Shown: positions 1-62,203, counted from the stretch's first letter. The stretch is 64,000 nucleotides of DNA from a virus (IMGVR_UViG_3300030095_004938:3695-67694), one strand, 5' to 3'. A program made the numbers and translations. The notes: generated from the letters alone by a model not told the origin.

Positions 1-300
1 CTACCAAAAACTCCCCTAACAGAACCCTACAATCGGATATCTCGTACAAGAATCACCCTAACAAACCCCTTTTGTAAATCCTCAGCTTACAAACCCCTCT
101 TCTTGCCCCCTAGAACCCTCTCTATCTCCTATCCATGTTGCATTCGAGCCTTTGCGACATCCTTCAAAATCGACCCATAATCTATGGCCAAACGGGCAAA
201 AGCCCCGATAAGCGTGCGAAACTCTCCAACAACCCTAGTAAATCGCAAAGGCCCTTTTATTTCGGGTTCTGTTAGGGTCCCCTTACACTCCTCGTACAAG
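1..300. repeat. Non-coding, lower-GC, C/A-skewed region with iterated CCCTAACA(G/A)AACCC-like motifs; candidate origin or packaging/terminal region
   Basis: CCCTAACAGAACCC at 14-27 has its exact reverse complement at 264-277; CTCGTACAAG at 41-50 and 291-300; degenerate copies at 56-68, 87-98, 108-118; no credible ORF. Confidence 0.6.
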
Positions 301-471: not shown

Positions 472-1104
472 TCACCCCTCGCCGTCCTCCAGCATGGCCC
501 GGGCGTCGTCGAGGACCCGCCAGAGGGCCGCGTGTGCTGTGTGGTCCTCGCGGTCCCCCAGGGCGCGTTCGCAGAGCCCCACGGTCTCCGGGTCCCATGC
601 GGCCCCTGCTTCGTCGCGGAGGGCCAGGAGCGTCGCGTCGGGTACGGGCCCGCGTACTTGCTGCGCGGCCCATTCCTCGGCGGCTCGCCTCGCGGCGTGC
701 TTGAGCGCACAGACGCGGGTGCTGACGCTCTGCGACTCCCTGAGCCAAGTCCACGGCTCGCGTCGCATGGTCTGACCGATGCGGTCGAGCGCGGTCACCC
801 CGGCGCTTCCCATGCCGGGCGAGGGCGCGGCTTCGGGGTTGGGTCGTGACTGCCCGCAGGTGCAGCACGGAATACGCCTGGGTGCCTTGGGGTCGTAGCC
901 GAGTGCAACGTCGTCCCATAGCTTGAGCGGGATGCTGTTGAGGTGCCAGTCACCATCGGCAAGCGCCCTGCGGACACTTTCAAGCGGCACGGGGCAGAGT
1001 GCGGCGAGCGACTTCCAGCCGAGGATATCGCAAACGCGGTCCTGTTCGGCGATGAACTCGCGGTACTGGCGTGCGCGTCGTTGTTCGTTGGATTCGCCCA
1101 TCAC
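472..1104 (-). CDS. Hypothetical phage protein
   Basis: 210-aa ORF overlapping the upstream gene stop; GDWHLNSIPLKLWD segment and a CCTCG motif. Confidence 0.7.
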   Translation of the reverse strand: MMGESNEQRRARQYREFIAEQDRVCDILGWKSLAALCPVPLESVRRALADGDWHLNSIPLKLWDDVALGYDPKAPRRIPCCTCGQSRPNPEAAPSPGMGSAGVTALDRIGQTMRREPWTWLRESQSVSTRVCALKHAARRAAEEWAAQQVRGPVPDATLLALRDEAGAAWDPETVGLCERALGDREDHTAHAALWRVLDDARAMLEDGEG

Positions 1105-1346
1105 CGCACCCCCTGAATCGCCTGAAGCATCCGGGCGAGCGCGACGCGCCGGTTGTCGCTGACGCTTCCGTTGTGCGTAGCGTCGACCATTCGTCGCAGT
1201 CGCGCGAGGGCTCGCCCGTCGAGCGGGTTGCCGAGTGCCTCGCCTTGTAGCGCGTTCACAATCTCAAGGATGTGCTGGAAGAGGACGATGCTTTCGCGCT
1301 CCTCGGTGGTGGGGAGGATTGCTCCCTCGTTGAGTTCTTGGTTCAT
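1101..1346 (-). CDS. Hypothetical protein
   Basis: 81-aa ORF starting just downstream of the repeat element at 1355-1400. Confidence 0.7.
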   Translation of the reverse strand: MNQELNEGAILPTTEERESIVLFQHILEIVNALQGEALGNPLDGRALARLRRMVDATHNGSVSDNRRVALARMLQAIQGVR

Positions 1347-1354
1347 GTTGAAGT

Positions 1355-1400
1355 AAGCCGGGGGCCGCGCTCCACCGAACGCAGCCCCCGGAAGTTTTCT
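1355..1400 (-). promoter_or_regulatory. Conserved early-cassette element, copy 1
   Basis: Plus strand AAGCCG-N13-ACCGAACGC...TTTTCT; stem CCGGGGGC (1358-1365) / GCCCCCGG (1384-1391) flanks the core. Confidence 0.75.
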
Positions 1401-1424
1401 CGGCCCAAGCCCGCGCTTGTGGAC

Positions 1425-1703
1425 CTAGTAAACGCGCGTTCGACGGTCGCGATCGTCGAGAATCTCGACGCTAAGTACGCGTGGGTCGCGTTGCTTGAAG
1501 TGCCGCAAGACGCTACGGAGCGCGTAGTCGCGGCGAATCCAAGGCGCGGGTCGTGGAATGGCTAGGTGTTCTTCCTCCTCGATCACGTCGATATCATCGG
1601 GTCCGGATACGTTGACGATGACGCGGAGGAAGAGCAGGGCGGGGAAGAGGACGGAGAGCTTCCACGCAAGAGAAAGGTCCTCGATGCGATTCGGGTTGGT
1701 CAT
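1425..1703 (-). CDS. Hypothetical membrane protein
   Basis: 92-aa ORF with a hydrophobic stretch (LSVLFPALLFLRVIV); 4-nt overlap with the upstream gene. Confidence 0.6.
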   Translation of the reverse strand: MTNPNRIEDLSLAWKLSVLFPALLFLRVIVNVSGPDDIDVIEEEEHLAIPRPAPWIRRDYALRSVLRHFKQRDPRVLSVEILDDRDRRTRVY

Positions 1704-1945
1704 TTGTTAGGTCCCTCCGGGTCAAACCTTCCCCACTTTCGGACCATATCCTCGAAGGCGGCCATCCCATCGTTGACGGCGCCCCAATCGGTTACGCCTT
1801 CGCCGCTGACTTCGGCCATGAGCGACGGAATCGCGAGCCACAGCTTGCGAGCTACCGCGCTGGCCTCGCCGCGCTCCTTGGTGACTTGCTCGATACGGGC
1901 GATCAGGGATTCGCGCAGTTCTTCGCTCAACTTGTAGTCACTCAC
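1700..1945 (-). CDS. Hypothetical protein
   Basis: GTG at 1945 overlaps the upstream TGA (GTGA coupling). Confidence 0.65.
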   Translation of the reverse strand: MSDYKLSEELRESLIARIEQVTKERGEASAVARKLWLAIPSLMAEVSGEGVTDWGAVNDGMAAFEDMVRKWGRFDPEGPNK

Positions 1946-2130
1946 AGCGTGCCCCACTCTTCGGCCTCATAGGCTTTCTTGCGGAGGAGGTTGGAGGCCC
2001 TTCGGCACTTGTCGGAACAGAACCATTCTCCGCGCACGTTGCGGTAACCTTTGTTCTCTGGCGTGCGGTCTTCGTCGCAGTACCAACAGCGTTGGGCCTC
2101 CTCACAGCACGGGCACAGGTAGCGGCTCAC
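1942..2130 (-). CDS. Small Cys-rich (zinc-binding) hypothetical protein
   Basis: GTG at 2130 coupled to the upstream stop; CPCC, CWYC and CSDKC motifs. Confidence 0.6.
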   Translation of the reverse strand: MSRYLCPCCEEAQRCWYCDEDRTPENKGYRNVRGEWFCSDKCRRASNLLRKKAYEAEEWGTL

Positions 2131-2519
2131 CGTGCACCCTGCTCGCGACAGAGCGCGCTGAGGCGGACGGCTTCGGCCCAAGCCTCGTACTCCGATTCGA
2201 ACGTGTCGTTGCCCGCACCGGATTCGTCGACTTCGTCCCCGGTCTGGAGGCCCCGGAAGCACACGATCCACCCGCCGCCGAATGCCTCATCGACCGAGAA
2301 CCCGGCCTCCTCTGCCTCGCGCCGTTCAATCTGCTCAAGGATGACGGCCCGCACGTCGCCGCGCCCGTAGTCGCCGGACGGGAGGCGTTGGTAGACGTTC
2401 TCGGTCACCGTGTCGATGCGGTCCCTCATGGCCTCCAGGCATTCGACCTTCGCGCTTTTCACGGCGCTCTGGATGATCTCGCGGACTCGGCTCTCGGTGT
2501 TCTTGCAGGTCGGGTTCAT
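2127..2519 (-). CDS. Acidic hypothetical protein
   Basis: ATG 2519 preceded by GAGGAG; downstream of repeat copy 2. Confidence 0.7.
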   Translation of the reverse strand: MNPTCKNTESRVREIIQSAVKSAKVECLEAMRDRIDTVTENVYQRLPSGDYGRGDVRAVILEQIERREAEEAGFSVDEAFGGGWIVCFRGLQTGDEVDESGAGNDTFESEYEAWAEAVRLSALCREQGAR

Positions 2520-2573
2520 TGCGTGCTCCTCGTGGTTGGTGTGTGGTGTGCGGGCTTCGTTACCCACACCCCG

Positions 2574-2620
2574 AAGCCGGGCGGCACGCCACACCGAACG
2601 CGCCGCCCGGCTTTTTCTAG
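2574..2620 (-). promoter_or_regulatory. Conserved early-cassette element, copy 2
   Basis: AAGCCG at 2574 and ACCGAACG at 2593; perfect 12-bp stem AAGCCGGGCGGC / GCCGCCCGGCTT, then TTTTCTAG. Confidence 0.8.
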
Positions 2621-2862
2621 AGAACTTCGTCGGGGTCGAGTTCGGCGAGGATGCCAACGGCCTGGCGGATGACTTCGCCGCATTCGTCTAGCTCCTCGCA
2701 CCAGACTACGCGCTCGTCGGAGTCTAGTAGCTCGACGTACCAACCGCCTCGGTGGTCTTCGTCTTGAGCGTAGGCGGCCACACGGGCGCTCTGGATGCGC
2801 TCGTCACCCTTCAGGTGCTTATGGAGCGGGATCGGATAGGACTCGATGATTCGCGGACTCAT
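2617..2862 (-). CDS. Hypothetical protein
   Basis: 81-aa ORF coupled (ATGA) to the upstream gene. Confidence 0.65.
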   Translation of the reverse strand: MSPRIIESYPIPLHKHLKGDERIQSARVAAYAQDEDHRGGWYVELLDSDERVVWCEELDECGEVIRQAVGILAELDPDEVL

Positions 2863-3107
2863 GCGGTCACCTCGTTGCCCTCGGCGTCCTCGAAGTGGAG
2901 GGATTCAAGCCGAAGCTCCTCGGTGCTGGAGACCCCAAGCTCTAGGGCGGCCTCGCGGGCGAGAAGTTCCTCGGCGTGGTCTCGCACGGCGTTGAAGAGC
3001 GTGTCGGCGTCAACCTTGAAGGAGCACTCAACCTCGCACGATCCCCAAGTGTCGTCGCTGAAGGTTGCGAAGGCAAAGCATTGCACGGTGTTGGTTTCGT
3101 TCTTCAT
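2859..3107 (-). CDS. Acidic hypothetical protein
   Basis: Starts directly after repeat copy 3; Asp/Glu-rich. Confidence 0.65.
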   Translation of the reverse strand: MKNETNTVQCFAFATFSDDTWGSCEVECSFKVDADTLFNAVRDHAEELLAREAALELGVSSTEELRLESLHFEDAEGNEVTA

Positions 3108-3115
3108 GGTCACCT

Positions 3116-3162
3116 AAGCGGGATGATGCGGGGCACCGAACGCGCCCCTCGGTTTTTTCTAG
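3116..3162 (-). promoter_or_regulatory. Conserved early-cassette element, copy 3
   Basis: AAGCGG at 3116 and ACCGAACG at 3135; stem GGGGC/GCCCC; TTTTTTCTAGA. Confidence 0.75.
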
Positions 3163-3245
3163 ACGATCCCTAGCAGTACGGCCATGAAGAGGACGAACGC
3201 GATGAACGTCACAAGCTGCACGATGCAGTTGTCGCGGCGGCTCAT
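3159..3245 (-). CDS. 28-aa single-pass membrane peptide (below the ORF-track cutoff)
   Basis: MSRRDNCIVQLVTFIAFVLFMAVLLGIV*; ATG coupled to the upstream TGA. Confidence 0.6.
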   Translation of the reverse strand: MSRRDNCIVQLVTFIAFVLFMAVLLGIV

Positions 3246-3469
3246 AGGCGGGCCCCGCTTGCGCCAAACCTGATACCAAAAACGTCAACCTCGAACTCGT
3301 CGAGTTCGCTCATCTTGTAGTAGCTACCTCCAAGCTGAGTGAGCGCACACCATGCGGCCCGAAGCTCGGCAAGTTCCGCGTGGGTCGGACCAAGCCCCCC
3401 AGAGTGGCTGCGCTCGATGTCAATAGCGGCGCGCGTGAGTCGCGCCATCATCTGTTGGATGTTGCTCAT
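3242..3469 (-). CDS. Hypothetical protein
   Basis: ATG 3469 (MSNIQQ...) coupled to the upstream stop. Confidence 0.6.
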   Translation of the reverse strand: MSNIQQMMARLTRAAIDIERSHSGGLGPTHAELAELRAAWCALTQLGGSYYKMSELDEFEVDVFGIRFGASGARL

Positions 3470-3843
3470 CGAATAAGGTACTCCACGCCGCCGAAGTCGA
3501 CCGACGTATAGTCTTGCTCCAGTTCGCGGGCGGCTTGCTCCCAGTCGATGCAGCGGCCCGGCCAATCGTTCGAGCCCTCGAAGCCGCAATCCTCGGCAAG
3601 CTGTTGGGCGTACTCCTTGAAGTAGCTCCGGCGAATCAGGGCCTCGCCGTGCAGCCAATCGGCGGCGTACCCCTCGGCCTCCTGAGCAAGCTCGCCCAGG
3701 ATTCGAAGCTCTTCGGCCTCTTCCTCGTCGAGCGCCGGGCCTTCGCCGGATATGGCCTCTTCGGCCATAGCTTCGAGTTGTTCGATGCGCTCGATGATGT
3801 CGCGGGAGTCGATGATGTCGTCGATGTTGCTGATGTCGGTCAC
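3466..3843 (-). CDS. ArdA-like acidic antirestriction / DNA-mimic candidate
   Basis: GTG 3843 after GAGGA; very acidic; C-terminal CIDWEQAARELEQDYTSVDFGGVEY recalls the ArdA C-terminal motif (IDxExxARDL). Confidence 0.5.
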   Translation of the reverse strand: MTDISNIDDIIDSRDIIERIEQLEAMAEEAISGEGPALDEEEAEELRILGELAQEAEGYAADWLHGEALIRRSYFKEYAQQLAEDCGFEGSNDWPGRCIDWEQAARELEQDYTSVDFGGVEYLIR

Positions 3844-3891
3844 GGTTCTTTCCTCTTGGTTGGTGTGTGGTGTCGTTGCTGACACACCCCC

Positions 3892-3939
3892 AAGCCGGGG
3901 GCGTGTGTGGACCGAACGCGGTCCCCGGAAGTTTCTAGA
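3892..3939 (-). promoter_or_regulatory. Conserved early-cassette element, copy 4
   Basis: AAGCCG at 3892 and ACCGAACG at 3911; local hairpin GGACCG-AACG-CGGTCC; TTTCTAGA. Confidence 0.8.
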
Positions 3940-4231
3940 GCCAGCCGATGCAGCCGTCTTGCTCGGCGCCGCTTTCGGTGTGCTCCATCGCTTCGTCGTC
4001 GCCGTCGTCGTTGGTGTAGACGACGACGCGGTATCGTTCGGCGTCACCGACGATAGCGCGGTATCGTTCGTTTCCTTTTACGGCTTCGGCGACAGCGTAG
4101 GTGTGCCAGTCGTCCCAGGACTCCGCGAGGGTGCAGTCGGGAGCGTTCTCGTAGTTGTAGCGGTTGGCGAGTGCTTCGGCGGCGGCTCGCGGGTAGTCGA
4201 GCGGCGCGCGGTAGATCGTTGTCATGTTCAT
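3935..4231 (-). CDS. Acidic hypothetical protein
   Basis: 98-aa ORF immediately after repeat copy 5. Confidence 0.6.
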   Translation of the reverse strand: MNMTTIYRAPLDYPRAAAEALANRYNYENAPDCTLAESWDDWHTYAVAEAVKGNERYRAIVGDAERYRVVVYTNDDGDDEAMEHTESGAEQDGCIGWL

Positions 4232-4239
4232 GATCCCCC

Positions 4240-4283
4240 AAGCCGGGCGTGGTCAGGAACCGAACGCGGGTTTTCTGTTTTCC
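4240..4283 (-). promoter_or_regulatory. Conserved early-cassette element, copy 5
   Basis: AAGCCG at 4240 and ACCGAACG at 4259 (same 19-nt register). Confidence 0.75.
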
Positions 4284-4645
4284 GCCGCGACGTTTGCGGC
4301 TTGTTCAAGAAGTGCGACGATGAAGTCCAGTCGAGCGCGGTAGGTTTCTGACGCCTTGCTGTCCGGCTCGCCGCCGCCCGCCCGGAACGGGTCGAGCGTG
4401 TCGACTATGACGGCAAGAGGGAGGGCGCCACCTTGCTCGATGACTTGGGCGAGCCCCTCGACCTGGGAGAATCGGAACTCTGCCGCGTTGTCGAGATAGA
4501 GGACGCCGCCAGCGGCGAGGCGAAGCTCGGCGGTAAGTCCGTGGACGCCGGTGGTCCAGTGCGGAGCGCGGAACGGGATGAGCTTTCCGGCGATTGCGAT
4601 CGCTTCGGTGGTGGGCTTGTCGGTTTCGGTTCGGATGATTCGCAT
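4253..4645 (-). CDS. Truncated ComM/YifB (Mg-chelatase-related AAA+)-like protein, predicted catalytically inactive
   Basis: PFRAPHW...ELRLAAGGVLYLDNAAEF...LAQVIEQG parallels ComM PFRxPHH...GEISLAHxGVLFLDELPEF...LREPLExG; no Walker A, and Walker B DE is changed to DN. Confidence 0.65.
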   Translation of the reverse strand: MRIIRTETDKPTTEAIAIAGKLIPFRAPHWTTGVHGLTAELRLAAGGVLYLDNAAEFRFSQVEGLAQVIEQGGALPLAVIVDTLDPFRAGGGEPDSKASETYRARLDFIVALLEQAANVAAENRKPAFGS

Positions 4646-4695
4646 GGCGGCGTCCTCTTTGGTTTGTGTTGGCGGGCCTCGTTGCCCACACCCCC

Positions 4696-4741
4696 AAGCC
4701 GGTCGCGGTCAGGAACCGAACGCGGCCCCTGGGAATTTCTC
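4696..4741 (-). promoter_or_regulatory. Conserved early-cassette element, copy 6
   Basis: AAGCCG at 4696 and ACCGAACG at 4715; stem GGTCGCG/CGCGGCC; ATTTCT. Confidence 0.75.
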
Positions 4742-4957
4742 AAGAAGTCCGTGCCAGTTCAGCGCACCGTCAGGAGGCGCAACGCCGGACGCATCGGCCA
4801 GCGCCAGGGCGGCGGCGGCGTCGAGCTTGGCGCCGCGTTGCTGGGCGAGCCATGCGGCAGAGCCGGAAGCGTGCCCGTCTACAAGGAGGCGCACGGCGGC
4901 GCCTAGGGACCGGCGAGCGTCGGATAGCTCGCGGTCCCGGATAGCTTGGGAGGGCAC
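4709..4957 (-). CDS. Hypothetical protein
   Basis: 82-aa ORF abutting the upstream stop; its end runs through the repeat element. Confidence 0.55.
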   Translation of the reverse strand: MPSQAIRDRELSDARRSLGAAVRLLVDGHASGSAAWLAQQRGAKLDAAAALALADASGVAPPDGALNWHGLLEKFPGAAFGS

Positions 4958-5485
4958 CTAGTAGAGTCCCCCGTTCGCGGTGAATTCGCGACCGTTGGCG
5001 ATCAGCGACTCACGGATGGCTTCGTCGCTTTGCAGGTACTCCATATCTGCCGCCCATGCCTTCGCCCAAGAGTCGGCGCACTCGCTCACAAGCTCTTGGA
5101 GCGTCGCGTCCGTTGGTTTCTTGAGGAAGGCCCGCATTGGGTCGAGAAACGACTCGTCCCCGCAGTATCCCGTGAACGGGCAGTCCTCGCGGATGGCTTC
5201 GGCTACGCCGTTGGAGTGCAGCCACTTCCAAGCGCGGACCCCAGAGAGCGAGGCGGCAACATCATCCCGCATTTCGACGCGGGCATGAGAACGGCCCCAA
5301 GGGTTGACGCTCCAGTCGTCGACGATGAGGCCGAGAGTCTCGGAGGCGACTTGAATCGTCTCTCGCCACTTGTCGCCCCATTCGAGGCCATAGTCAAACC
5401 GTTCGCGGGCGTTCTCGATGGCGACGGCCTGAACCTCTCCGCTGAGTTCCTCGAAGGTGTAGATCGTGAAGGTTTCGGTTCGCAT
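4958..5485 (-). CDS. Conserved acidic phage early protein (MRTxxxxIYTFEELS...EYLQSDEAIRESLIAN type)
   Basis: ATG 5485 after GAGGA; N- and C-terminal motifs recognised as typical of a widespread phage/plasmid family of unknown function. Confidence 0.7.
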   Translation of the reverse strand: MRTETFTIYTFEELSGEVQAVAIENARERFDYGLEWGDKWRETIQVASETLGLIVDDWSVNPWGRSHARVEMRDDVAASLSGVRAWKWLHSNGVAEAIREDCPFTGYCGDESFLDPMRAFLKKPTDATLQELVSECADSWAKAWAADMEYLQSDEAIRESLIANGREFTANGGLY

Positions 5486-5524
5486 GGCTTCCTCGTTGGT
5501 GTGTGGTGTCGCTGACACACCCCC

Positions 5525-5570
5525 AAGCCGGGCGCCGAATGCGACCGAACGCGGAAATCGCAGAAATGTC
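5525..5570 (-). promoter_or_regulatory. Conserved early-cassette element, copy 7 (first in transcription order)
   Basis: AAGCCG at 5525 and ACCGAACG at 5544; shares the GGTGTGTGGTGTCG and TGACACACCCCC leader segments with copy 4. Confidence 0.75.
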
Positions 5571-5750
5571 GCACCCCTCTGTCTCGTAAGGGAAGGCACG
5601 ACTCCCCGGGCTTCCATGCTCGGTTGGCCGTCCCACGGGGCGGTATCACACGACCCGACCCGTTGGCCCTGATTGAAGGGATGGGCGCGCCCCACCGCCA
5701 GCCGGTCGGGTCACTTCATACTCGCCGGTATCATCCCGCCGGGTATACTA

Positions 5751-5787
5751 AATGCGACATCCTAGGCACCGAATGCGAACTCCTAGG
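5751..5787 (+). repeat. Direct repeat AATGCGA(CA/AC)TCCTAGG with 21-bp period in the divergent intergenic region
   Basis: Units at 5751-5766 and 5772-5787; TGCGACATCCT also occurs at 153-163. Confidence 0.65.
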
Positions 5788-5908
5788 TGACCATAAAGAT
5801 AGCCCCAGGTCCGGATATAGGTGGAGGTATCCCTCGCGCGCTATAGGGCGCCTCCCAATATCCGAGAATGCGGCGATTTTCGACGAGCCTCGATGCAGGA
5901 TGGGAGGC

Positions 5909-6397
5909 ATGAGGTTTCTCCAGCTCTGCGCACTCCTGACGCTCGCGAGCTGTGAGCAGACCGCCGGTCAGGCGTTGATGCCCGACGAGTTCACGCTGTT
6001 CGGCTCCCAGGGGGTCGGCGACGGCGAGATCACACGGAGCACCGCCGTGTACGACACCACCGGCGACAGCTACCGCTACGGCGCCGCCCTGACGTGGGAC
6101 CTACGCCCGCCCCAGGTGAGCACCATCCCACAGCTCGACCGCATCGCGCGTGCTGTGGAGAAGCAGCCGTACTACGCGCCGCCGGTGATCGTGCCGACGA
6201 CCGGGCCGCAGAACCCGCGTGAGGAAACCTCCACAACGAACAACAGTGACGAGCAGCCTGATGATGACCTAATCTTCGGGATGACGATGTCTCGCTTCGC
6301 GGCGACGCTTGGAGCGACGGCGGCAGCCATCGCAACGGTGCTCGCTGCGATCAAGCAGGGGCAGTCAGCCAAAACACCAACAACCGAACCAGAATGA
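5909..6397 (+). CDS. Lipoprotein with C-terminal hydrophobic helix (u-spanin-like topology)
   Basis: ATG 5909 after GGAGG; signal MRFLQLCALLTLASC with LASC lipobox; C-terminal FAATLGATAAAIATVLAAI. Confidence 0.65.
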   Translation: MRFLQLCALLTLASCEQTAGQALMPDEFTLFGSQGVGDGEITRSTAVYDTTGDSYRYGAALTWDLRPPQVSTIPQLDRIARAVEKQPYYAPPVIVPTTGPQNPREETSTTNNSDEQPDDDLIFGMTMSRFAATLGATAAAIATVLAAIKQGQSAKTPTTEPE

Positions 6398-7275
6398 AGC
6401 GACTCATCTCACTACTCGCGTTCCTGTGCGCGTTCCTCCCCGGCGGCGACCTCGTGTGGGGTCAGGACTTCGTCGTCCTGGAGCACCGCATCACCGACGG
6501 CGCGGAACTGTGCACGGTCGTCGACCCAAGCGACGACATCTACGGCCTCGACGACAACGGCCACCCCATCGGGCTGGGCTACCACTACACCGACGTCGCT
6601 ACCGGCACGCCGGACATCCGCACGCAACGAGCCCTGGCGTTCGAGGTGCCCGGCGTGAACCTCGAAGGTGTGGGCACATGGCCGCACGTTCACGAGGGTG
6701 ACCCGTCGCGGCTGATGATCCGGCTCGACATCAAGGAGCGCCGCTGGGTCGGGTGGGAGAACCTGAACCCGACCGAGAGCATCGAGGGCTTCGTGCTGAT
6801 GACGACGCATAACAGCTACCAGCTCGCGAGGAACACGAGCCCGACGAATCCAAGCTACGAACTGATCAGCACGAACTTCGGCTTCCAATCGGGATGGGAG
6901 TGGTGGCAGCCCGCGAGCCTGGCTCCGTTCGACGGCGCGATCGACGGCGAGGGTTCAAGTGGCTGGCGGTTCTCGTGCGGGCCGCTCTACTTCCACCAGC
7001 CGCAAAGCGAGTGGTGTGAGCCCGGCCAGTGGGACTACCACACGACGAGCAGCGTGACCTTCCTGGACTGGTCGGATCTCAGCTACCATGACCGCAACGC
7101 TTGGCGGTCGGGCCACACCGAGCGTCTGAAGTACCGCACCAGGCAGTACATGAACTACCACGCAGGCGGCCCGCCGCTCGATGGCCCGTTGCTGTCGGCG
7201 ACGAACGCGCACGGGTGGGCCGTCGAGTGGGGCAACCGCCCGACTGTGGACGTCACGATCATCGCCCTGGACTAG
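6394..7275 (+). CDS. Secreted protein, choice-of-anchor-E-like beta domain
   Basis: Sec signal MKRLISLLAFLCAFL; SLAPFDGAIDGEGSSG recalls the LxAFDGTIDFxGxSG motif. Confidence 0.55.
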   Translation: MKRLISLLAFLCAFLPGGDLVWGQDFVVLEHRITDGAELCTVVDPSDDIYGLDDNGHPIGLGYHYTDVATGTPDIRTQRALAFEVPGVNLEGVGTWPHVHEGDPSRLMIRLDIKERRWVGWENLNPTESIEGFVLMTTHNSYQLARNTSPTNPSYELISTNFGFQSGWEWWQPASLAPFDGAIDGEGSSGWRFSCGPLYFHQPQSEWCEPGQWDYHTTSSVTFLDWSDLSYHDRNAWRSGHTERLKYRTRQYMNYHAGGPPLDGPLLSATNAHGWAVEWGNRPTVDVTIIALD

Positions 7276-56371: not shown

Positions 56372-56690
56372 CGGCCACTCCTTTGTAGGACTCCCCGTTG
56401 ACGATTCGACGGATGGTCCTTCTGGACACACCGTAAGCCCTCGCAATATCTGTGGTGGATTCTCCCGCGTCAATCCTTTTTCTGACCCACAGGATCTGAT
56501 CGGGGGTCAGCTTGCCTGGGCGACCCACCTGTCCGCTGCCGGACGGGATGTCACGGCAGATCCAGTGGACCGACCCGACCGGCATCCCAAGGCGACGAGC
56601 GATGTCGCCAGCCGTCGGGCCACCCTTCTTCCCGTAGGCTTTGCGGATCTCCCTGCACGTCTCCTCGCTGTACTTTCTCGGTCGAGCCAT
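56343..56690 (-). CDS. Tandem helix-turn-helix DNA-binding protein
   Basis: TAGDIARRLGMPVGSVHWI and STTDIARAYGVSRRTIRRI. Confidence 0.8.
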   Translation of the reverse strand: MARPRKYSEETCREIRKAYGKKGGPTAGDIARRLGMPVGSVHWICRDIPSGSGQVGRPGKLTPDQILWVRKRIDAGESTTDIARAYGVSRRTIRRIVNGESYKGVADVPVSTDPE

Positions 56691-60631: not shown

Positions 60632-61212
60632 GGCTTCTCCTGCGGTACGTACACCATCTTCGACTTGATCGCCGCCAGCTTGTCGCCGAGGATGCGCCCG
60701 GCCTTGATCTGCTCGCCCGAGGTCGGTGAGGAGTCCCACCAGAAGTCCAGGTACTCGTCCACGGCATCGACCAACTCGATCAGGCGGTTCGACTCTTGCT
60801 GGAATGCCTTGCGGGCCTCTGCGAGCGGAGAGCGCTGCCCCTCCTCCCGCCCCAGGGCGTCGAGCACGTCGTCGGCGTCGAGCCAGTTGCCTTCGGGGTC
60901 GGGCTCTACCAGGTGCCCAGCCTCCTCATCTGTGGTCCGGATGCTGTACCTCGGCAGCCCCCGCACGCGCTCCACGGCGTCGCGCATCTCCAAGTTGATA
61001 CCGGCAAGTGCGTCGGCCCGTGCCCTCTGCCGCCGCGAAGCGCTCTCCAGCTCCGCTACCCGCTCGCGGAGGGCGTCGCGCTCGTCGCGCATCTCAAGCA
61101 GCATATCGCGCCCCCGCGTGTCGCGGTGCAGCTCGCACCAGTTGACGACCCTGCCACCGATGACGGTGCAGCCGCAGGCGAGGGCCTGGTTGAGGATGAT
61201 CGGCTTGCTCAT
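60628..61212 (-). CDS. Modular coiled-coil hypothetical protein
   Basis: 194-aa coupled ORF. Confidence 0.65.
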   Translation of the reverse strand: MSKPIILNQALACGCTVIGGRVVNWCELHRDTRGRDMLLEMRDERDALRERVAELESASRRQRARADALAGINLEMRDAVERVRGLPRYSIRTTDEEAGHLVEPDPEGNWLDADDVLDALGREEGQRSPLAEARKAFQQESNRLIELVDAVDEYLDFWWDSSPTSGEQIKAGRILGDKLAAIKSKMVYVPQEKP

Positions 61213-61946
61213 CGGGCTCTGTTCCTCCTACTCGGCGTCGGCTCCTCGTCGATGTCAGCGAGCCCCAGGAACTTCATGTCGTGCTCCTTGCAGTAGCGTA
61301 GGAATGCCGCTCCGTGTAGCTCGCCGGGCTTCATCTCGATTCCGTGACCGACGGTGCCGCCTTTCCACGAACCCTTGCGCCTTCCAGTTTCGCCGGAGAA
61401 CTTGATCTCCAGGGTGCGTTGGATGCGAGGCTTGCAAAGCGATGACAGCCATCGAAACCAACCCGTACCTCGACGCCACTCGCGCTCCTCGATGTAGGTG
61501 CGCGCCGTGAGGCGCTCGCCGTCGAAGTCCTCGAAGAGGAATGTGTGCCCTGGGCAGTCTTCAAGCAAACGCAGCCACTCAAGGATGGGGTCGCTGCCAC
61601 GGGTGGCCAGGTGATTGCCACAGTGGTCGTAGAGGCTCTCCCGAACGTGCCTCCAGGCCGTCCACGGGATCTCCCAGCAGGCGGACTTCTCGATCTCGCC
61701 GTCGAAGGTCTGCACGCCGTAGCAGGAGTGCACGTATCCCTCCTGGATGTTCAAACCGTACTGCCTGCCGGGTTTGAACAGCCGTGGCAGTAGAACGAGC
61801 AGCGTTCGTCCGGCGACGTGGACCCGGAAGTGCGGCTCATCCTCGTCGGGGCCACCCGTGTCCAGGCAGAATCCGAACGGCGCGTAGCGGTCCCGTGCAT
61901 AGGTGAACGGGCCGAAATTCTTGTCGTTGTCGCTCCAGCGCATCAT
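61209..61946 (-). CDS. Conserved hypothetical phage protein
   Basis: WSDNDKNFGPFTY...FSGETGRRKGSWKGG...GIEM..GELH..AF.RYC. Confidence 0.72.
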   Translation of the reverse strand: MMRWSDNDKNFGPFTYARDRYAPFGFCLDTGGPDEDEPHFRVHVAGRTLLVLLPRLFKPGRQYGLNIQEGYVHSCYGVQTFDGEIEKSACWEIPWTAWRHVRESLYDHCGNHLATRGSDPILEWLRLLEDCPGHTFLFEDFDGERLTARTYIEEREWRRGTGWFRWLSSLCKPRIQRTLEIKFSGETGRRKGSWKGGTVGHGIEMKPGELHGAAFLRYCKEHDMKFLGLADIDEEPTPSRRNRAR

Positions 61947-62203
61947 CGTTCTCCCTCGAAGACGTGCCACACCAGGCCGCTGCGCATCTGCACGGTTCCG
62001 ATATATCCACTCGGGTCAAGGCACTGCCTGCCTCCAGTCGGGTGGACCTCAATCGTGCGTTCGCTGGCATCAATGGACGTGTCGACGTGCGCCCACAGCA
62101 CCAGATCGCCCGCCTGCTCGCCGACCGAGAGGATCGTGGCTGCGCTGGGCATCTCGACCGTGTTCATCCCCGGTTCCAAGGGGTACTTGTGGATGGTTCT
62201 CAT
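61943..62203 (-). CDS. Conserved small phage protein (MRTIHKYPL...LVWHVFE type)
   Basis: Recognisable motif pattern IxKY...LWAxVD...YIGTVQ...VWHVFE. Confidence 0.75.
   Translation of the reverse strand: MRTIHKYPLEPGMNTVEMPSAATILSVGEQAGDLVLWAHVDTSIDASERTIEVHPTGGRQCLDPSGYIGTVQMRSGLVWHVFEGER

Follow-up and report, generated by a model that had tools for sequence, protein, structure and literature searches.

A repeated two-box element heads the early gene cassettes of an uncultured marine siphovirus and resembles promoter early stem-loops

Promoter early stem-loops (PeSLs) are multi-copy intergenic cassettes of phages in which an upstream stop codon in an A/T tract is followed by promoter boxes, a polyG/polyC stem-loop at variable position, a Shine-Dalgarno (SD) sequence and a start codon (PMC2839356). 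The stem-loop may sit between or over the promoter boxes (PMC2839356), which take the form of TTGACA-N17-TATAAT or of a Mot box plus a -10 box (PMC2839356; PMC4122927). PeSLs are located in ORFan-rich hyperplastic regions (Arbiol et al. 2010, PMC2839356; Comeau et al. 2014, PMC4122927), their promoter and terminator activity as well as recombination between copies, seen as indels that separate close relatives and as mini-circles, have been demonstrated (PMC2839356; PMC4122927), and PeSL-like motifs have been reported for the haloarchaeal virus HGTV-1 (PMC3950731). A second described system is that of Pseudomonas phage YuA, in whose record (NC_010116) five 28-bp repeats are annotated as "putative sigma70 promoter requiring phage-encoded cofactor"; according to Putzeys et al. 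2024 (PMC10914365), nine mapped transcription starts carry the motif, and the motif is inactive on its own. Here, we describe a repeated element in the leftward early gene array of an uncultured marine siphovirus, which was analyzed in a window of 64,000 nucleotides (nt) corresponding to bases 3695-67694 of the 67,694-bp IMG/VR record IMGVR_UViG_3300030095_004938 (rated complete). The element is read on the minus strand because the genes run leftward, and it has the form GCGTTCGGT-N13-CSGCTT. We give about an even chance to the reading that these elements are PeSL-like composite cassettes with a phage-private, non-sigma70 promoter.

The initial annotation had listed seven copies of the repeat, in each of which AAGCSG on the plus strand lies exactly 19 nt before ACCGAACGC, and this count was reproduced in full: AAGCSG-N13-ACCGAACGC has seven exact matches in the window, with no mismatches, against 0.51 expected, and none of 100 shuffles reached seven. 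The 9-mer core itself occurs nine times against 1.08 expected. In addition to these seven copies (c1-c7, given in window positions), an eighth with one mismatch (c8, 2951-2978) and a ninth with three mismatches (c9, 2528-2555), both in genome positions and on the minus strand, lie within 3.7 kb left of the window and ahead of leftward genes, so that all copies share their orientation with the leftward genes. Copies with two mismatches are absent from the whole record and the background at four mismatches equals the shuffle expectation; the motif family is therefore sharply bounded. With a sequence model made from the nine copies, these score E 6e-13 to 2e-7, and no other site in the window is detected.

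When the copies are aligned, the invariant letters fall into two boxes, (G)CGTTCG(GT) and C..CCSGCTT, with exactly 13 non-conserved letters between them, and the second box is usually followed by GGGGG. The TTTCT(AG) box that had also been pointed out in the initial annotation was confirmed; its gene-strand form is (CT)AGAAA, a third box 17 nt before the core in c2, c3, c4 and c6 and 18 nt before it in c1, giving the order AGAAA, 12 nt, GCGTTCGGT, 13 nt and CSGCTT(GGGGG). An A-tract directly adjoins the core in c5 and c9, where it is thus about one helical turn closer. The position of this A-box is tied to the core and not to the end of any stem. Like PeSLs, furthermore, the elements of the array begin at the upstream stop in an A/T-rich tract: namely, the A-box of c2-c4 is CTAGAAA, which includes the TAG that ends the upstream gene, the A-tract of c1 lies 25 nt past the upstream stop, and c5 and c6 contain the stop within the element itself (upstream of c7 and c8 there is no gene). 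The spacers between the two boxes are unrelated, with about 5 of 13 letters identical on average and c5/c6 as the exception. Invariant boxes combined with unrelated spacers suggest selection on the boxes and their spacing and not a recent duplication.

The distribution of the elements among the genes is equally strict. All seven intergenic gaps of the array hold one element, while none is found at overlapping gene junctions, and each element heads one to four leftward genes as had been proposed. In c1, c3, c5 and c8, the ATG that opens the next open reading frame (ORF) lies exactly 8 nt past GCTT and is not accompanied by a properly spaced SD sequence. In c2, c4, c6 and c7, a CA-rich leader of 39-54 nt with a canonical SD sequence follows the element, in agreement with the earlier description of four copies that continue into a shared CA-rich leader and ribosome-binding site. 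Hairpins can be predicted in these leaders, yet they are no better than those of shuffled sequences.

The initial annotation also described the repeat as a hairpin with an invariant loop core, a description that folding of the gene-strand RNA did not bear out. Only c1 (15-bp stem, -34 kcal/mol, z -4.8) and c2 (16-17-bp stem, -35 kcal/mol, z -4.6) fold beyond their shuffles; the short stems of c3, c4 and c6 are no better than shuffles (z -0.3 to -1.1), c5 and c7 do not fold, and the hairpin is also absent in c8. Among the copies, the centre of the loop shifts between core positions 3.5 and 8.5, and part of the supposed loop core is therefore stem in some of them. Stems, which are built from the two variable spacers flanking the first box, occur where the upstream gene ends before the element (c1-c4) and not where the upstream ORF overlaps or is absent (c5-c8). 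Covariation, which had been suggested as a check on the hairpin, was not detected: RNAalifold gave no consensus hairpin (-0.63 kcal/mol, 0 compensatory pairs), and in two explicit registers neither the paired fraction nor the covariation was clearly above shuffled or slid controls. In terms of the GC-rich stem-loop of PeSLs, the array has strong examples in c1 and c2, short ones in c3, c4 and c6 and none in c5, c7 and c8, and their register varies.

This lack of a conserved structure argues for a signal at the level of DNA. Indeed, the main features of the element point to a DNA signal read by RNA polymerase rather than to a structured RNA, because the boxes are about two helical turns apart, the strand is strictly kept and each gap has one copy, and also because invariant boxes stand beside free spacers and keep an exact distance to four start codons. 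The initial annotation had interpreted the repeat as a structured promoter or recombination cassette that builds a modular array. The part concerning a promoter cassette draws support from the spacing, the strand, the gaps, the start distances, the anatomy shared with PeSLs and the position of a promoter-like sequence in a related locus (described below), whereas structure as the recognized feature is not supported.

Hairpins with conserved letters near the apex nonetheless call to mind two classes of structured DNA, namely the extruded-hairpin promoters of phage N4 and the attC-like sites of site-specific recombination, and variable stems around a conserved apex in several copies as well as cassettes of one to four co-oriented ORFs that look promoterless would be in line with either. 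Also, GTTCGGT is close to the integron core GTTRRRY. The promoters of N4 need a virion RNA polymerase of about 3,500 amino acids and a hairpin of fixed register (5-7-bp stem and 3-nt loop). In the array, conserved letters are found at a hairpin apex upstream of early genes in some copies as in N4, but the register is not fixed (the apex shifts by about 5 nt), covariation is missing, c5, c7 and c8 are free of hairpins, and no giant virion RNA polymerase was found in the phage, of which the three largest ORFs encode a homologue of tail fibre J, a tape measure protein and a distal tail protein. As for attC, each element contains a single GTTCGGT with no paired inverse core, and neither a tyrosine nor a serine recombinase was found (PF00589 and PF00239 without match). 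This explanation, including the analogy with N4 drawn in the initial annotation, is hence largely refuted and appears extremely unlikely.

The hairpins could alternatively be intrinsic terminators on the plus strand, acting with their T-tracts against antisense rightward transcription and leaving the core incidental. On that strand, T5-T6 follows the stems of c2 and c3 and TTTTCT follows c1 and c5, and a sigma70-like candidate for a rightward promoter is present at window 152-181; when read on the gene strand, the stems lack a U-tract behind them. The plus-strand T-tract, however, keeps a constant distance to the core and not to the stem end, from which it is 0-7 nt away and thus not in the position of a terminator tail. 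Moreover, c7 and c8 keep their boxes without a stem or T-tract, a terminator scan called none, and the invariant boxes and the ATG spacing would be left unexplained. We consider terminators of this kind very unlikely.

If the element is instead a PeSL-like promoter cassette, the cassettes would divide the leftward early region into units of one to four genes (Table 1). The A-tract of AGAAA would act in the manner of an UP element around -50, the -35 zone would be occupied by GCGTTCGGT and the -10 zone by CSGCTT(GGGGG), and transcription would start about 9 nt past GCTT. Such a start would produce leaderless or near-leaderless mRNAs from c1, c3, c5 and c8 and mRNAs with a CA-rich leader and a normal SD sequence from c2, c4, c6 and c7. 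The GC-rich stem-loop would be secondary and might attenuate or stabilize read-through transcripts coming from the upstream unit.

Table 1. Elements, leaders and cassettes of the leftward early array (window positions, listed from the first element of the array)
Feature	Position	Strand	Description
c7 element	5525..5552	-	Core GCGTTCGGT, N13, CGGCTT; first of the array; without A-box or hairpin
c7 extra box	within the 5525..5552 element	-	GTCGCATTCGG, resembling boxes of the control region upstream
c7 leader	5486..5524	-	CA-rich, type A, common with c4; SD GAGGAA, ATG at 5485
c7 cassette	4709..5485	-	E14 (4958-5485, phrog_10310), E13 (4709-4957)
E13 stop codon	inside element c6	-	Last codons of E13 (..AFGS*) from c6 core
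c6 element	4696..4742	-	AGAAA box, core, spacer 11/13 identical to c5, CGGCTTGGGGG; weak stem
c6 leader	4646..4695	-	Type B, common with c2; SD AGAGGA, ATG at 4645
c6 cassette	4253..4645	-	E12, 130 aa; last codons (..AFGS*) from c5 core
c5 element	4240..4283	-	Two A-tracts, core, CGGCTT; ATG 4229-4231 exactly 8 nt past GCTT; no hairpin (z +1.8)
c5 cassette	3935..4231	-	E11, 98 aa; no family match
c4 element	3892..3937	-	E11 stop TAG within CTAGAAA; short stem GGACCG/CGGUCC centred on core; then CGGCTTGGGGG
c4 leader	3844..3891	-	Type A; SD AAGAGGAAAG, GTG at 3843
c4 cassette	3159..3843	-	E10 (3466-3843), E9 (about 3242-3469), 28-aa hydrophobic ORF (3159-3245)
c3 element	3116..3161	-	Stop TAG in CTAGAAAAAA; 7-bp stem around core; CCGCTT; ATG 3105-3107, 8 nt past GCTT
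c3 cassette	2617..3107	-	E8 (2859-3107), E7 (2617-2862); neither with family match
c2 element	2574..2619	-	Stop TAG in CTAGAAAAA; 16-17-bp GC-rich hairpin, core at apex
c2 leader	2520..2573	-	Type B; SD GAGGAG, ATG at 2519
c2 cassette	1425..2519	-	E6, E5 (Cys-rich, 62 aa), E4, E3; ORFs overlap or abut
c1 element	1355..1400	-	GAGAAAAC box; 15-bp hairpin; ATG 1344-1346, 8 nt past GCTT; no SD
c1 cassette	472..1346	-	E2 (1101-1346), E1 (472-1104)

Which polymerase would read such boxes is less obvious. In agreement with the initial annotation, two scans found no sigma70-like site in the array, where the boxes are GCGTTCGGT and CSGCTT in place of the sigma70 or Mot boxes of PeSLs, and reading the element as a sigma54 promoter was rejected because the offset from GG to GC is 18 and not 12. 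A six-frame search and scans of about 70 ORFs revealed neither sigma70 region 2 or region 4 domains nor a T7-type polymerase; PF00940 had no match in the phage, as was also the case for the control genomes of the same search. Host-type promoter candidates do exist elsewhere, and the host thus probably reads ordinary promoters. The best sigma70-like site of the genome, TTGACG-N17-GATATT, is located at window 56473 (minus strand) at the head of the late-gene strand, and the adjoining ORF, with sub-threshold matches to HTH_3 and NUMOD4, is a candidate regulator. With boxes unlike those of sigma70 promoters and no recognizable polymerase or sigma gene in the phage, reading of the elements by host RNA polymerase would depend on an alternative host sigma or on a small, unrecognized phage cofactor, and the idea of a cofactor would parallel the proposal made for the promoters within the 28-bp repeats of YuA. 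A bolder form of this idea is that the elements make up a promoter class not recognized by any known sigma, in which a small ORFan-encoded factor redirects host RNA polymerase to GCGTTCGGT/CSGCTTGGGGG, the mRNAs are leaderless and an extruded stem-loop tunes each promoter; we regard this as distinctly unlikely.

Several observations weigh against reading the elements as promoters at all. The boxes match no sigma specificity known to us; to our knowledge, no consensus of sigma32, sigma28, sigmaB or extracytoplasmic function (ECF) factors can be recognized in them, and they lack an A/T-rich -10 hexamer. Anti-restriction genes, one of which is a member of the array, are usually expressed at once by the unmodified host polymerase, and this sits uneasily with a phage cofactor. 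Scans of IMG/VR, of species genomes and of loci encoding homologues of the array protein E14 revealed no relative with the motif. Furthermore, a conserved CTCGGATATT box that contains a better host-type -10, GATATT, lies upstream of both c7 (by about 300 nt) and c8 (by about 240 nt), and the core resembles tandem GAATGCGACATCC boxes in the control regions. The first of these last two points means that the array could be transcribed as a single long RNA, with the elements working at the RNA level, and the second that the core could be simply the binding site of a regulator.

As for the former, the elements would be signals of RNA processing, stability or attenuation on a long early transcript from a host-type promoter upstream of c7, comparable to the RNase III sites in the early region of T7. 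In addition to GATATT upstream of c7 and c8, a full sigma70-like match, TTGAGA-N18-GATATT, is present at genome 3318; the very stable hairpins of c1 and c2 stand directly after the upstream genes, and cleavage near GCTT could yield short-leader mRNAs. What such signals do not accommodate is the absence of any common structure or covariation, the unfolded state of c5 and c7, conserved letters that change between single-stranded and paired from copy to copy and an A-box that follows the core and not the stem; Rfam also gave no match at the gathering score in the 64-kb window. We therefore regard this explanation as unlikely, if worth weighing. A trans-acting ribozyme or antisense RNA pairing with both boxes was considered as well and rejected, since the genome contains no complement of the second box outside the elements.

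Concerning the latter, the core would be an operator or "stoperator" for a phage regulator that blocks early transcription and also binds the GAATGCGACATCC boxes, and the elements would not be promoters. On the plus strand, the core ACCGAACGCG resembles the tandem ACCGAATGCGAC, which is found only in two control regions and c7, and the sites are asymmetric, intergenic and co-oriented with transcription. The stoperators of cluster A mycobacteriophages have the same three properties. An operator, however, needs neither three boxes with fixed spacing over about 50 bp nor a distance of exactly 8 nt to ATG, and all of the sites lie within a single genome arm. With regard to the immunity repressor and the temperate life style that characterize stoperator phages, no integrase, resolvase or clear repressor was found, and the only candidate was a sub-threshold match to HTH_3 at window 56388-56453. 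A regulator binding site is accordingly an improbable explanation, albeit one to be taken seriously.

Three copies of a second repeat, about 110 bp long, were noticed at window 5745-5885 and at genome 2040-2160 and 3095-3240 (L008:590-710, 1645-1790). Its flanks are GGCATAAAGAGAGCC..TCCGGATAT and CAATATCCGAGAA..GCGATTT, between which a middle part of 33-38 nt is variable and self-complementary; tandem GAATGCGACATCC boxes precede two copies, and copies b and c are located about 120-190 nt upstream of c8 and c7. This repeat may be a control region with the -10-like GATATT on the minus strand or a structured RNA. To the left, a 140-bp direct repeat (genome 1040-1180 and 1496-1640) carries a weak look-alike of the element, CAGTTCGGA-N13-CCGGCTT. 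The two look-alikes with three mismatches in this repeat (genome 1099-1126 and 1549-1576) were not counted as copies, and one of them, inside a searched locus, was missed by the sequence model. At the left end of the record (genome 1-240 and 1855-1985), tandem repeats resembling (GCCAGC)n and (GGCTC)n were also seen.

In the course of the search for relatives, the exact pattern gave 49 scattered single matches in IMG/VR and 20 single matches in unrelated taxa among 185,579 species genomes, both of which are at chance level, and no record in either set had several copies. The model of the nine copies, applied to 0.7 Mb of loci encoding E14 homologues together with YuA and phiC31, recovered its training copies only, with the next best hit at E 0.036. 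The phage itself appears isolated: its terminase has no close relative in IMG/VR and is 21-30% identical to those of cultured phages, and no relative came up when the tail sulfatase domain was used as a query.

Positions were also compared in 69 loci encoding a homologue of E14. In one of them (L061), where the homologue is 45% identical, a near-consensus promoter TTGCAC-N17-TATACT stands ahead of the E14 gene. The distance from its -10 box to ATG is 40 nt, that from CSGCTT to ATG in c7 is 41 nt, and the CA-rich leader is of the same kind as in the array. Two E14 relatives of 50% identity from a metagenome scan (L092 and L093) do not have the motif; a pattern match in L093 lies inside an ORF and was discarded as chance. 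Two further E14-bearing loci (L067 and L071) carry private repeated motifs of their own upstream of genes.

Among the described systems, the anatomy of PeSLs appears to match the array point by point except for the sequence of the boxes (PMC2839356), and the analogy with PeSLs made in the initial annotation is in that sense upheld. As in the PeSLs of T4-type phages, multi-copy intergenic cassettes have the same order of parts, the copies are mosaic and, in those copies of the array that have a stem-loop, its position is variable. Unlike those PeSLs, the array belongs to a GC-rich siphovirus, its boxes are not sigma70-like, and half of its copies have ATG 8 nt past the second box with no SD sequence; also, activity and recombination were shown for PeSLs, whereas for the array they are putative.

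YuA is similar in other respects. It is a siphovirus of 64% G+C with near-identical, co-oriented 28-bp repeats ahead of gene groups that include an anti-restriction gene, and the elements of the array span 28 bp as well; like the array, it has variable inverted arms in some copies only, a conserved core with TTCGG and no phage polymerase. The arms are found around the CTTTACTTCTTCGG core in three of the five repeats (L147; 10500-10527, 29058-29085 and 31098-31125; z -2.8 to -3.7) and are not mentioned in the sections of PMC10914365 drawn on here. The YuA motif, CTTTACTTCTTCGGA-N6-CACTATAC, nonetheless keeps a recognizable -10 TATACT, which the motif of the array does not, and the pentamer TTCGG is all that the two motifs share. 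The element model had no match in YuA, and no relatedness between YuA and the phage was detectable in the proteins compared.

In phiC31, 11 co-oriented GC-rich repeats, GGTTGCCGACTCCCTTAC, are located ahead of early genes at 30-50 nt before the starts and have no TATAAT-like box; some of them are abutted by terminator hairpins, the 3' arm of which overlaps the repeat. We take these repeats to be the early promoters of this Streptomyces phage that were reportedly described by Ingham et al. in 1993 in Mol Microbiol. The motif of phiC31 is one contiguous block of about 20 bp, whereas that of the array consists of two boxes with a 13-nt spacer, and phiC31 is a temperate phage that possesses a repressor, palindromic operators and a protein (gp12) that RefSeq annotates as an RNA polymerase sigma factor.

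The copies in the array are mosaics of one another: c6 has a spacer like that of c5 (11/13), a leader like that of c2 and an upstream part like that of c4, while the leader of c4 is like that of c7 and the upstream part of c2 is like that of c3. Mosaic copies and a nearly private gene content fit an exchange at conserved boxes but are no proof of it. Repeated tracts of 30-90 bp could give the homology for recombination that shuffles ORFan cassettes. When three DNA runs were compared, one contig spanned 1-8353 with neither variants nor joints at the elements, and the other runs gave only spurious pieces of 22-38 nt. We also noticed that E12 and E13 are unrelated and yet both end in AFGS* (window 4253-4267 and 4709-4723, minus strand), because both ORFs read through the core of the next element; a regulatory box hence supplies the C-terminus of these two proteins.

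The assignment of the phage to the siphoviruses is based on a tape measure protein of 1419 amino acids, a homologue of tail fibre J and the large terminase; its G+C content is about 64%, and its replication module contains SNF2 and UvrD helicases, a primase and a methylase. The only sequencing run that contains the phage is a marine DNA metagenome, which may be its own source, and none of the listed runs that contain the region is an RNA run. The early region consists of small leftward genes, as supported by G+C at third codon positions (GC3), start codons and ribosome-binding sites. Most of the array proteins have no match in Pfam or PHROG. E10 is an ArdA-like anti-restriction protein (phrog_25535, E 2e-29; Pfam ArdA below the cut-off), and E14 has homologues in Chi-like phages. 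Among the 16 array proteins, E14 alone is widely shared in the 69 E14-bearing loci; E10, EL8 and EL9 are present in one or two of them and the remaining 12 in none. The array is thus an ORFan-rich hyperplastic setting of the type in which PeSLs are found.

Elsewhere in the genome, a protein of 253 amino acids at window 61209-61970 (minus strand) matches Pfam Acb3, an inhibitor of the cyclic-oligonucleotide-based anti-phage signaling system (CBASS), over its full length (E 5.8e-64), and a probable anti-CBASS gene is hence located at the right end of the genome. A purine-rich sequence, AACCGAAGAAGAAG(AG), is over-represented more than 80-fold (window 13110 and 13678 on the plus strand; 42442, 48491 and 53961 on the minus strand). 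Judging from the sites other than 53961, at least four genes of the replication and structural modules have it immediately ahead of their start codon, and it may mark a specialized region of translation initiation. A tRNA-Pro(TGG) called by ARAGORN at window 6488-6561 (minus strand) is opposite an ORF at 6394-7275 (plus strand) with GC3 of 0.89, and the call is probably false.

As the general kind of element has already been described and no relatives were found, the wider value of these observations is limited. The motif nevertheless gives a putative map of transcription units for 16 unannotated early genes, including that of the ArdA-like protein, and predicts which of the genes are translated from leaderless mRNAs. 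If the elements are indeed PeSL-like promoter/attenuator cassettes, such cassettes would not be confined to T4-type, Felix O1-type, T1-type or phi92-type phages, and a GC-rich siphovirus of marine origin would join those in which they organize and shuffle the genes of host takeover. A private, non-sigma70 pair of boxes would then imply a specificity factor not yet known or an unusual host sigma. Should the elements even be promoters of a new class, the ORFans of this phage would include a new transcription-specificity factor, and a new kind of sigma appropriation would be at work.

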